Source of the DNA: Escherichia coli
GTDB lineage: Bacteria; Pseudomonadota; Gammaproteobacteria; Enterobacterales; Enterobacteriaceae
Assembly (NCBI RefSeq): GCF_051903065.1
Contig: NZ_CP178438.1
Direction: 5' to 3' (one strand)
Length of the DNA: 64,000 bases
This document shows positions 3,800 to 6,858 of the stretch, in pieces (positions within the stretch are counted from its first letter, which is position 1; each line of letters starts with the position of its first letter). The position numbers were made by a program, and so were the translations under genes. Under the pieces are notes generated by a model. It ran no database searches. It saw only the letters and a list, made by a program, of their open reading frames with translations, and was not told the origin of the DNA.

Positions 3800-5035
3800 A
3801 TGCTGCAACAGGTTCCAACGCGTGCTTTTCATGTGATGGCGAAACCGAGCGGTTCCGATTGTAATCTGAACTGTGACTACTGTTTTTATCTCGAAAAACA
3901 ATCCCTTTACCGCGAAAAGCCAGTCACGCATATGGACGATGACACGCTGGAAGCGTATGTCCGTCACTATATCACTGCCAGCGAACCGCAAAACGAAGTG
4001 GCTTTTACCTGGCAGGGCGGCGAACCAACGTTACTCGGGCTGGATTTTTACCGCCGTGCCGTAAAGTTACAGGCGAAATACGGTGCTGGCAGGAAGATAA
4101 GTAACAGCTTCCAGACTAACGGCGTGCTGCTCGATGATAAATGGTGTGCATTTCTGGCAGAAAATCATTTTCTTGTTGGGTTATCGCTGGACGGTCCGGC
4201 TGAGATCCACAATCAATATCGCGTGACCAAAGGTGGCAGACCAACGCATAAGCTGGTGATGCGTGCCCTGACGCTGCTGCAAAAACATCATGTCGACTAT
4301 AACGTGCTGGTCTGCGTCAACCGCACCAGCGCGCAGCAACCGTTGCAGGTTTATGATTTTTTGTGCGATGCGGGAGTCGAATTCATCCAGTTTATTCCGG
4401 TGGTCGAGCGTCTGGCTGATGAAACAGCTGCCCGCGATGGACTGAAATTGCATGCGCCTGGTGATATTCAGGGGGAACTGACGGAATGGTCGGTGCGCCC
4501 CGATGAATTTGGTGAATTTCTGGTGGCGATATTCGACCACTGGATTAAACGCGACGTCGGCAAGATTTTCGTGATGAATATCGAATGGGCGTTTGCCAAT
4601 TTTGTCGGTGCGCCGGGTGCGGTTTGCCATCATCAGCCAACCTGTGGGCGCTCGGTGATTGTTGAGCACAATGGCGACGTTTACGCCTGCGATCACTATG
4701 TTTATCCGCAATATCGACTGGGGAATATGCACCAGCAAACAATTGCAGAAATGATCGATTCCCCGCAACAGCAGGTGTTTGGTGAAGATAAATTTAAGCA
4801 ATTACCGGCGCAGTGTCGCAGTTGTAACGTGTTAAAAGCATGTTGGGGAGGCTGCCCGAAACACCGCTTCATGCTCGATGCCAGCGGCAAACCGGGACTG
4901 AATTATTTGTGTGCCGGGTATCAGCGTTATTTCCGCCATCTACCGCCATATCTTAAAGCAATGGCTGATTTGCTGGCGCACGGTCGCCCGGCCAGCGACA
5001 TTATGCATGCGCATTTGCTGGTGGTGAGTAAGTAA
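3800..5035 (+). CDS. aslB: Radical-SAM anaerobic sulfatase-maturating enzyme homologue, 411 aa
   Basis: CxxxCxxC radical-SAM motif (CNLNCDYC) near the N-terminus and C-terminal Cys clusters; start trimmed from the track ORF (3770) to the ATG giving MLQQVPTRAF; lies next to sulfatase aslA. Confidence 0.8.
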   Translation: MLQQVPTRAFHVMAKPSGSDCNLNCDYCFYLEKQSLYREKPVTHMDDDTLEAYVRHYITASEPQNEVAFTWQGGEPTLLGLDFYRRAVKLQAKYGAGRKISNSFQTNGVLLDDKWCAFLAENHFLVGLSLDGPAEIHNQYRVTKGGRPTHKLVMRALTLLQKHHVDYNVLVCVNRTSAQQPLQVYDFLCDAGVEFIQFIPVVERLADETAARDGLKLHAPGDIQGELTEWSVRPDEFGEFLVAIFDHWIKRDVGKIFVMNIEWAFANFVGAPGAVCHHQPTCGRSVIVEHNGDVYACDHYVYPQYRLGNMHQQTIAEMIDSPQQQVFGEDKFKQLPAQCRSCNVLKACWGGCPKHRFMLDASGKPGLNYLCAGYQRYFRHLPPYLKAMADLLAHGRPASDIMHAHLLVVSK

Positions 5036-5060
5036 AAAAGCGGCCATTTTGTGGCCGCCT

Positions 5061-5177
5061 GCGGTTGATTGCCGGATGCGGCGTAAACGCCTTATCCGGC
5101 CTACATGATCGTGCAAATTCAATAAATTGCAGCGTTCTGTAGGCTGGATAAGATGCGTCAGCATCGCATCCGGCAAA
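5061..5177. repeat. REP/BIME cluster (two inverted REP copies) between aslB and aslA
   Basis: gccggatgcggcgtaaacgccttatccggcctac and the inverted copy gtaggctggataagatgcgtcagcatcgcatccggca. Confidence 0.8.
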
Positions 5178-5202
5178 GGCAGATCTCAGCGATAGCGCCG
5201 GC

Positions 5203-6858
5203 TTAATCAGATTTAATCTGCGCGCGTGGTGGATACTTTTTCAGGATCTCCATATACGCGTGCATTTCGGTCTGTAGCGGTACACCCATCGGAATATGGC
5301 GCACGCCGATAGAGTCGCTCTCCTGCGGATCGGTGTACAGGTTAAACACCGACGATCCGGCTGTTTGCATTACTGTGCCGGTGAATCCACCCTGATATCC
5401 GCTCTGGGTATAAGCGTAAGGTTGCTGAATCAGGACGTGATACTTGAATTCATCCATACGCACAGCAGCGAGTTTACCGTTGAGGAAGTAGTGCTCGGCC
5501 TTACGGTTAGACTGACCATTTGTTCCCAGGAAGAAAGATGTCTGGTCCACACCATCGATAAAGGTGGTTTTCGGCACTAAATTCGCCACTTTCGCGCCAG
5601 GATGCCCTGCCAGATCCAGCGCGGTAGGGAAGAGATCTGCCAGATCGACAATACCGTCAGATTTACGCGGTTGGATCATCCCTTTCCAGTACACGAAAGT
5701 CGGAACGCGAACGCCGCCTTCCCAGGTAGATCCTTTCGCACCACGGAACGGTGTGCGTCCGTGCGGCGGTACTTCGGCTTCCGGTCCGTTATCGGAGGTA
5801 AAGACAATCAGCGTGTTATCAAGCTGACCGTTTTTCTCTAGTGCTTTATACAGATTAGCGAACACATCGTTCATTTCCACCATGCAGTCGCCATACGAGG
5901 TGCGTGCCGGAGAGCTACCCGCATATTTGGCGTTCGGGTAGTTATCGAAGTGACAGCCGCGAGTGCCGTAATAGAGGAAGAAAGGCTTCTCACTCTTCGC
6001 CATCTTGTCGAGGAACTTAACGCCATATTCCATCCAGCGTTGATCCAGATCTTCCATATATTTCGGCGTAATGTCGGCAATGGCCTGTTGTTCGCCGCCG
6101 CGCACCGCATGAACGTCATCTTTGCTAAATGGTAATTGCTTGATGTATTCAGAACGGTCCGGACTCAGGGCCACTTCCGGATTGACGTGAACGTCGCGCC
6201 ATTCGGTGTACATATCAGACACCGAGTTAAAGCCACGGAAATCATCAAAGCCAACGTTCTGCGGCTGCGACTCTTTGTTTTCCCCCATATGCCATTTCCC
6301 GATGGCCTGAGTGACGTAGCCCTGATCGTGCAGCAACTGCGGCAGCGTGGTTAACCCTTGCAGCCCGCCCGGTTGCCCGTACATTGGCGGCATCAGAATG
6401 CCGTGGTGGATGGAGTATTGTCCGGTGAGAATGGTGGCGCGGGTTGGGGAAGAGCTTGGTTGAGAATACGCCGAAGTTAAAATCAGCCCCTGGCTGGCAA
6501 CGGCGTCGATATCTGGTGTAGGGTTACCCACCGCCACGCCGCCACCGTTAAAACCGACGTCCATCCAGCCCACATCGTCCAGCAAGAAAACAACCACATT
6601 CGGTTTCTTACCGGTTTTTTTCTCAAGTTCTGCCAGCTTCTGCTGGGTTTCTTTATCCTGCGCCGGATGCTGCATTACTGGCATCATGTTGTCGGCAATA
6701 GTGGTCGCCGGTTTAACCAGATACTGGTTTGGGTGATCGTATCCGGCAAAGCCTTTGCGTGCGGTGGCAGTTGAAGGGGTATCTGCTGCGCTGGCCATGA
6801 GAGGAAGAGCGGCGGCGACAGCAACAACAAGAAGTTTGGGTGAAAACGAAAATTCCAT
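5203..6858 (-). CDS. aslA: Arylsulfatase-like protein with signal peptide, 551 aa; Ser-type sulfatase signature
   Basis: N-terminal signal peptide ([15 protein letters not shown]); sulfatase signature S-x-P-x-R-xxx-L-T-G present as [11 protein letters not shown]. Confidence 0.85.

Follow-up and report, generated by a model that had tools for sequence, protein, structure and literature searches.

The aslB/aslA locus of Escherichia coli: a predicted Ser-type sulfatase, its putative radical-SAM maturase, and the retention of aslB where aslA is deleted

Background

Do the neighbouring genes aslB and aslA of Escherichia coli encode a sulfatase together with the enzyme that matures it, and would AslA then be the only protein that AslB serves? 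By established knowledge of the family, Ser-type sulfatases need a radical-SAM maturase, and the locus raises the question of whether these two genes supply both partners. They are named and annotated E. coli genes, and their reading as sulfatase and maturase is standard and already known; in the literature searched they are represented by two cited papers, Benjdia et al. 2007 (FEBS Lett 581:1009) and Hoffman et al. 2000 (Infect Immun 68:5062). The pair was analysed here in a stretch of 64,000 nucleotides (the window), where the locus gives a 100% match to the chromosome of E. coli strain ECNB21-M121.

Results

Gene arrangement and intergenic region

RefSeq annotates aslB (3800-5035, plus strand, ORF of 411 aa) as an anaerobic sulfatase maturase and aslA (5203-6858, minus strand, ORF of 551 aa) as an arylsulfatase. 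An earlier note on this DNA had described the two genes as divergent. The strands of the ORFs and the annotation show instead that they converge, tail to tail: aslB is read rightward and aslA leftward, with their stop codons (5033-5035 and 5203-5205, respectively) facing each other. The genes consequently have no promoter or regulatory region in common and do not form an operon. Apart from orientation, the evidence below supports that note in reading the pair as a probable Ser-type sulfatase and radical-SAM maturase. Both genes are intact, and K-12 and a UPEC allele have an identical Ser signature.

The 167-nt spacer between the two stop codons holds the repeat element that had been noticed there, and it proved to be one BIME (5069..5176, no strand assigned) lying between the 3' ends of aslB and aslA. 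It consists of two REPs, at 5071-5104 (plus strand) and 5139-5174 (minus strand), inverted around a 34-nt linker. Shuffled sequence gave 0 REP matches, and further copies occur in the window at 34262 and 53186. With a 4-kb query covering the locus, the median number of places matched in an E. coli genome was 27, compared with one for either gene alone, although this query also holds three tRNA genes. The BIME is polymorphic: in the three strains compared, the spacer measures 167, 158 and 90 nt. With alternating REPs, repetition around the genome and a position outside genes, the element is a BIME by all of these standards.

A consensus scan, and this alone, picked out a terminator-like hairpin on the minus strand at 5030..5060, GGCGGCCA-CAAAA-TGGCCGCTT with a T run after it. 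This candidate overlaps the aslB stop codon and is placed to end aslA transcripts past the BIME; its sequence is not the same in K-12. The sigma-70 scan of 3600-7600 returned 3 sites where shuffled sequence would yield 4.7, and since such sites are no more frequent than chance we claim no promoter. A CRP-like palindrome 5' of aslB (3690-3705, 2 mismatches) was rejected, as the window contains 15 such matches against 26 expected, which is not above chance.

AslA is a predicted Ser-type sulfatase

The Pfam Sulfatase domain (PF00884) covers residues 86-418 of AslA (E 3.2e-71; 240 bits, cut-off 25). Within it, residues 136-146 form the single full match in the protein to [CS]xPxRxxx[LM]xG and likewise the sole full fit to the S1 signature (C/S)-x-P-x-R-x-x-x-(L/M)-T-G. 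The signature codons lie at 6421..6453 on the minus strand, and the first of them, TCT at 6451-6453, encodes Ser136, the predicted formylglycine precursor. The signature had been said to carry Ser, not Cys, at the position that is expected to become formylglycine, and the alignments bear this out. The best solved-structure match is PsFucS1 (7AJ0; E 1.5e-100, AslA residues 52-544), and in an ungapped stretch of this alignment Ser136 falls on the catalytic Cys111 (chain residue 102 of 7AJ0). Ser136 also falls on position 69 of human arylsulfatase A (ARSA). We looked for a true signature residue elsewhere in the protein and found Ser136 to coincide with the catalytic Cys column for column.

Other active-site positions agree with this assignment. 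AslA K188/H190, H303 and K375 align with ARSA K123/H125, H229 and K302, which we take to be catalytic residues of that enzyme. The Ca2+ ligands that PMC8484680 names for PsFucS1 (7AJ0) have their counterparts in D94, D95, D356 and N357 of AslA. Both the metal ligands and the catalytic Lys and His residues are invariant among 21 diverse homologues. Together with the signature, these features place AslA among the predicted precursors of S1 (formylglycine-dependent) sulfatases. Its translation begins with a Sec-type signal peptide that lacks a twin arginine (codons 6787..6858, minus strand; cleavage site inferred).

With regard to substrate, AslA reached no NCBIfam equivalog for arylsulfatase (best score 106 bits, cut-off 481), choline-sulfatase or Mn-arylsulfatase, so that no characterised orthologue lends it a substrate. 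Among solved structures it is closest to an S1_13 enzyme and not to a classical arylsulfatase: the match to P. aeruginosa AtsA (1HDH) is confined to residues 83-205 (E 1e-25). Membership of SulfAtlas subfamily S1_13 is thus suggested indirectly, through the match to 7AJ0. PsFucS1, from Pseudoalteromonas sp. MB47, is a marine fucoidan-oligosaccharide sulfatase of S1_13 that forms a hexamer, and its trimer-forming regions are not conserved across the subfamily (PMC8484680). It has the Ca2+ ligands, the nucleophile position and an N-terminal extension in common with AslA, but is Cys-type (C-T-S-S-R) where AslA is Ser-type (S-S-P-T-R). Since this nearest characterised relative desulfates fucoidan oligosaccharides, a sulfated glycan is our best guess for the substrate of AslA.

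AslB is a predicted anaerobic sulfatase maturase

AslB contains the Pfam Radical_SAM and SPASM domains (SPASM E 1e-11) and scored 519.1 bits against TIGR03942, the NCBIfam equivalog for anaerobic sulfatase maturases (cut-off 349.45). Two narrower models were not reached (PRK13745, 466.8 against 484; PRK13758, 249 against 441). Scores for non-sulfatase maturase families lay far under their cut-offs, with weak sub-threshold similarity to other SPASM peptide maturases.

The natural client of the Clostridium perfringens maturase anSMEcpe is a Cys-type sulfatase. AslB aligns with this enzyme (PDB 4K36-4K39) over residues 12-391 (223 bits, E 6e-65, for 4K36). The CxxxCxxC motif reported earlier as CNLNCDYC, together with further Cys clusters, was readily located: C21-N-L-N-C25-D-Y-C28 (codons 3860..3883, plus strand) aligns with C15, C19 and C22 of anSMEcpe and is the motif of the SAM-cleaving [4Fe-4S] cluster, and eight more clustered cysteines follow. 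Their codons, with that of D298, lie at 4625..4912 on the plus strand, as judged by alignment to 4K36. For Aux I, AslB C276, 282, 297 and 352 align with anSMEcpe C255, 261, 276 and 330; for Aux II, C339, 342, 348 and 371 align with C317, 320, 326 and 348 (ligand numbering from PMC5715301). A check for missing auxiliary clusters thus found all eight of the eight auxiliary Cys ligands matched. D298 is the equivalent of D277 in 4K36, so that the Asp beside the third Aux I Cys is kept along with CX3CX2C and the auxiliary cysteines. AslB differs from anSMEcpe in an insertion of about 17 residues around residues 205-225 and in a longer C-terminus. On this profile AslB belongs with the anaerobic sulfatase maturases (anSME/AtsB) as a predicted member.

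Ser-type loci are linked to an aslB homologue

Among 80 species-level loci, the AslA family was mostly Cys-type (63 loci, against 17 Ser-type). Ser136 is common to K-12, UPEC132 and all 32 of the 32 closest database clusters, and the 85 more distant clusters are Cys-type. An aslB homologue was found immediately downstream, convergent and 44-180 bp away, at 16 of the 17 Ser-type loci but at only 3 of the 63 Cys-type loci. An FGE gene showed the opposite pattern, with 15 of the 63 Cys-type loci and none of the 17 Ser-type loci having one as a neighbour. The Cys-type members with an FGE gene (PF03781-type) nearby, e.g. from Paraburkholderia, Nannocystis and Caballeronia, share 54-70% identity with AslA along almost the entire length and have the same signature except for Cys in place of Ser at its first residue.

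A Fisher test of Ser/Cys type against the presence of an anSME neighbour gave p = 6e-13, but the Ser-type loci are essentially one clade, and we do not read this value as a probability; for the same reason the association reflects few evolutionary events rather than 16 independent ones. The two-gene cassette itself was found in enterobacteria, where it has at least two chromosomal contexts, as well as in one deltaproteobacterium and one betaproteobacterium. The linkage of the Ser-type clade with an aslB homologue adds support to the sulfatase-maturase reading. Two Ser-type relatives, P0026 among the database clusters and L082 in the genome set, have no maturase gene nearby, and they were counted against a partnership of AslA and AslB.

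aslA is frequently deleted and aslB is retained

Genome comparison showed that the segment 5141..6719 of the window (no strand assigned) is absent from about 32% of complete E. coli genomes. The same 1579-bp deletion was present in 1732 of 5425 such genomes; one end of it lies within the second REP and the other at codon 47 of aslA, of which a 5' remnant of 138 nt is left. At the junction we searched for microhomology and found no clean repeat, with one unaligned base between the two matched segments and one breakpoint in the REP. Full-length aslA occurs in 3693 of the 5425 genomes and full-length aslB in 5424. In all eight of eight sampled aslA-deleted genomes the aslB ORF was intact, and these eight carried six different protein alleles.

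The pN/pS of aslB was 0.03-0.13 for the window allele compared with eight others and 0.07-0.13 for deep pairs within those eight. The synonymous divergence of these alleles may predate the aslA deletion or reflect recombination, and the value of 0.07-0.13 therefore does not demonstrate constraint after the loss. Close allele pairs had synonymous/non-synonymous counts of 0/2, 1/2 and 4/3, too few sites to judge. AslA of the window differs from that of K-12 at 4 of 551 residues and from that of UPEC132 at 9 of 551, with DNA divergences of 2.2% and 5.6%, respectively.

Discussion

Taken together, our results make it probable, as far as sequence comparison can tell, that aslA encodes a periplasmic Ser-type S1 sulfatase and aslB its cytoplasmic maturase. 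Homology suggests how the two would work. The genes would be transcribed separately, toward each other, with the BIME in between. AslA would be synthesised as a precursor bearing a Sec signal peptide. In the cytoplasm, before this precursor folds, AslB, carrying three [4Fe-4S] clusters, would bind the segment around S136-S-P-T-R. The CX3CX2C cluster of AslB would reductively cleave S-adenosylmethionine to give a 5'-deoxyadenosyl radical, which would take a C-beta hydrogen of Ser136; with the electron leaving via both auxiliary clusters, Ser136 would become C-alpha-formylglycine. Once exported, AslA would fold around a Ca2+ held by D94, D95, formylglycine-136, D356 and N357, and its hydrated aldehyde would attack sulfate esters with the aid of R140, K188, H190, H303 and K375.

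The predicted chemistry is the same as that of Klebsiella pneumoniae AtsA/AtsB, likewise an exported Ser-type S1 sulfatase with a neighbouring radical-SAM/SPASM maturase of the TIGR03942 equivalog family. In Klebsiella, atsB and atsA are co-directional and form one operon, in contrast to the convergent aslB and aslA.

A different view of the locus is that E. coli keeps the pair as a remnant, dispensable or cryptic, its genes intact in appearance but contributing little under most conditions, with aslA in the process of being lost. The identical deletion in 1732 of 5425 complete genomes fits such a view, as do the promoter-like sites at 3 against 4.7 expected from shuffled sequence; moreover, E. 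coli K-12 is not known to display sulfatase activity in the laboratory. Yet every catalytic and cluster-binding residue is conserved in AslA and AslB, AslA has changed at few residues relative to the DNA divergence, the pN/pS of aslB is low, and the cassette has been kept across genera. Published reports describe co-segregation of aslA with invasiveness, and the gene is repeatedly listed as invasion-associated (PMC11879602). We consider such a remnant unlikely. The retention of aslB was also counted against the preferred pairing of AslA with AslB, since a maturase with AslA as its sole client would not obviously be kept in 5424 of 5425 genomes when aslA is deleted from about 32% of them.

A client besides or instead of AslA, be it a different sulfatase of E. 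coli or some unrelated peptide, would explain this persistence. The excess of full-length aslB over aslA and the intact ORFs and varied alleles in the sampled deleted genomes are in line with it; so is the weak similarity of AslB to other SPASM peptide maturases, and anSMEs are known from published family work to accept Cys and Ser substrates alike. Against this, the synonymous divergence of aslB may be older than the deletion or a product of recombination, and the deletion may simply be recent; close allele pairs show too few changes to judge. Non-sulfatase maturase families score far below their cut-offs, and aslB is syntenic with aslA throughout the Ser-type genomes of the clade. As a rival to the pairing of AslB with AslA, this account is quite improbable. 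The broader idea that AslB has a job beyond AslA, maturing some other sulfatase-like protein or an unrecognised client containing Ser or Cys, is raised by an aslB that is intact in essentially all complete E. coli genomes, including the third or so that lack aslA; we regard it as doubtful, if somewhat less remote.

The identification of the aslA/aslB pair in itself adds nothing new. What the locus offers is the combination of an aslA that is often deleted and an aslB that is always kept with the tight association of the Ser-type clade with a convergent aslB, from which simple testable predictions follow on who matures what in E. coli.

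Arrangement of the aslB/aslA locus

The ORFs and the RefSeq annotation place aslB (anaerobic sulfatase maturase, 411 aa) at 3800-5035 on the plus strand and aslA (arylsulfatase AslA, 551 aa) at 5203-6858 on the minus strand, exactly as proposed in the earlier note. The description of the genes there as divergent was wrong: aslB reads rightward and aslA leftward, so that the two converge with their 3' ends. A query of 4 kb spanning the locus was 100% identical to E. coli strain ECNB21-M121 and had matches in 5425 of the 5426 complete E. coli genomes, and the gene order in RefSeq is thrP, tRNA-Arg, tRNA-His, tRNA-Leu, tRNA-Pro, aslB, aslA, glmZ and hemY. 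The four-tRNA cluster (Arg-CCG, His-GTG, Leu-CAG and Pro-TGG; 3217-3653, plus strand) is closed by a terminator-like hairpin at 3659-3680, about 120 nt upstream of aslB. On the other side, the aslA-hemY spacer holds the small RNA GlmZ/SraJ (Rfam RF00083, 218 bits) at 7283-7489 on the plus strand; since glmZ points in the opposite direction, away from aslA, the two have a common upstream region in the 424 nt that separate glmZ from the aslA start codon. Elsewhere in the window, a full-length match to Rfam RF02757 (the 'Erse' small RNA, 318 bits) lies at 45842-46093 (plus strand), and the first part of a ribosomal RNA operon occupies 61198-64000 on the plus strand, where the 16S rRNA (61198-62739) is followed by two tRNAs (62808-62999) and by the 23S rRNA, which runs from 63177 to the window end.

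The REP/BIME cluster said to separate the pair is indeed present, between the two 3' ends. Within the 167-nt spacer (5036-5202), two REP units point in opposite directions, one at 5071-5104 (plus) and the other at 5139-5174 (minus), and together form a BIME; shuffled sequence gave no REP matches. Further REP-like copies are found at 34262-34295 (minus) and 53186-53221 (plus), each three mismatches away from the two REP types that make up the BIME. A terminator-like hairpin followed by a run of T, identified by consensus match only, lies at 5060-5030 on the minus strand; seen from aslA it comes after the BIME, and it overlaps the stop codon of aslB. The spacer is polymorphic between strains: K-12 has a spacer of 158 nt and an altered hairpin beside the aslB stop, and in UPEC132 the spacer is down to 90 nt, its two REPs apparently collapsed to one. 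The long spacer is confined to Escherichia, as would fit a BIME that was inserted later.

AslA and AslB carry sulfatase and maturase features

AslA matches the full sulfatase signature only once, at S136 and the ten residues that follow, and the first residue of this match is serine instead of cysteine, as had been claimed (codon TCT, 6451-6453). When aligned with human arylsulfatase A (ARSA), S136 falls at position 69, and K188/H190, H303 and K375 stand opposite the catalytic residues K123/H125, H229 and K302. The closest solved structure, 7AJ0 (E 1.5e-100, AslA residues 52-544), is that of PsFucS1, which belongs to SulfAtlas subfamily S1_13 and desulfates fucoidan oligosaccharides (PMC8484680). 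In the first alignment block, which is free of gaps, the AslA number equals the chain number plus 34, and the chain number equals the published number minus 9. S136 is thereby aligned to the catalytic Cys111, and D94, D95, D356 and N357 lie on the Ca2+ ligands Asp69, Asp70, Asp334 and Asn335 (PMC8484680). S136 is aligned to the nucleophile of both 7AJ0 and ARSA, and the true signature residue is thus not elsewhere. The nucleophile, metal-ligand and Lys/His positions were invariant across 21 aligned homologues with identity down to 60%. None of the NCBIfam arylsulfatase equivalogs was matched by AslA. By homology, its N-terminus (a 24-residue stretch) is a putative Sec-type signal peptide lacking a twin arginine.

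AslB scored 519 bits against a cut-off of 349 on the NCBIfam equivalog for anaerobic sulfatase maturases (TIGR03942), and has the Pfam domains Radical_SAM and SPASM. Both the CxxxCxxC motif (CNLNCDYC; C21, C25 and C28) and the additional cysteine clusters that had been expected were present, the latter comprising eight residues in the C-terminal third. In the alignment with the Clostridium perfringens enzyme anSMEcpe (PDB 4K36, 223 bits), C21, C25 and C28 correspond to C15, C19 and C22, and D298 to D277, which has been proposed as the catalytic base. All eight auxiliary-cluster ligands were matched: C276, C282, C297 and C352 correspond to the Aux I ligands C255, C261, C276 and C330, and C339, C342, C348 and C371 to the Aux II ligands C317, C320, C326 and C348 (numbering from PMC5715301). 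AslA and AslB both possess every feature of membership in their families that can be judged from sequence.

Ser-type members of the AslA family are linked to anSME genes

Among the best 120 database clusters, the 32 nearest to AslA (about 73% identity or more) were Ser-type (S-S-P-T-R), whereas 85 more distant ones were Cys-type (C-S-P-T-R). A family scan with one genome per species yielded 80 loci, typed by the residue aligned to S136 and searched 5 kb to either side for relatives of AslB (anSME) and of the Chitiniphilus formylglycine-generating enzyme (FGE) gene. An anSME gene was found at 16 of 17 Ser-type loci and at 3 of 63 Cys-type loci; the corresponding numbers for FGE were 0 and 15. 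As the Ser-type loci form what is essentially a single clade, the nominal p value for the association of residue type with an anSME neighbour (6e-13, Fisher) reflects a handful of events and not a large number of independent ones. In all 16 linked Ser-type loci the anSME gene lies directly downstream and convergent, 44-180 bp away. Escherichia, Kluyvera, Pseudocitrobacter and Superficieibacter carry the cassette in one and the same slot, flanked by hemY-glmZ on one side and by the tRNA operon and thrP on the other. Pluralibacter, one Citrobacter and Salmonella enterica subsp. arizonae have it at other sites, and a convergent cassette also occurs in a deltaproteobacterium and in Uliginosibacterium. 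In its genomic distribution, the pair behaves as a unit. In Chitiniphilus eburneus (locus L009/L010, 3336-5690), a Cys-type AslA relative has two such neighbours, an anSME-like radical-SAM gene as well as an FGE gene, suggesting that this sulfatase may undergo oxygen-independent as well as oxygen-dependent maturation.

Frequent loss of aslA

Full-length aslA was present in 3693 of 5425 complete E. coli genomes, while in the remaining 1732 (~32%) it was reduced to its first 139 nt, a remnant annotated in RefSeq as a partial pseudogene in the deletion genomes sampled. The common deletion of 1579 bp corresponds to 5141-6719 and removes aslA from codon 47 on, with one breakpoint at that codon and the other within the second REP of the BIME. 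Full-length aslB was found in 5424 of 5425 genomes, and its ORF was intact in all eight aslA-deleted genomes sampled, which carry six different protein alleles. The pN/pS between deep aslB alleles was 0.07-0.13, but these alleles may have diverged before the deletion took place, or through recombination. There is a minor possibility that AslB acts on another client.

Relation to known systems and proposed function

Klebsiella AtsA/AtsB consists of a Ser-type sulfatase and an iron-sulfur maturase. The aslA/aslB pair is its E. coli counterpart, and likewise that of the anSME family, whose structure comes from C. perfringens. The pair differs from the textbook case in that the genes are convergent, AslA has S1_13-like rather than classical arylsulfatase affinity, and aslA is frequently lost. 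The reading of aslA/aslB as sulfatase and maturase is already known, and is correct save for the gene orientation.

Based on homology, AslA would be made with a Sec-type signal peptide, and cytoplasmic AslB would use radical-SAM chemistry to turn Ser136 into formylglycine by oxidation while AslA is not yet exported; exported AslA would then bind Ca2+ and hydrolyse sulfate esters via the hydrated aldehyde. A 2021 paper still regarded sulfatase maturation in E. coli as not fully understood; it named aslB and ydeM as putative maturases and suspected a third system (PMC8379841). As the nearest characterised relative of AslA acts on a sulfated polysaccharide, our best guess is that the substrate may be a sulfated glycan, in line with the speculation in a study in which aslA co-segregated with invasiveness (PMC11879602).
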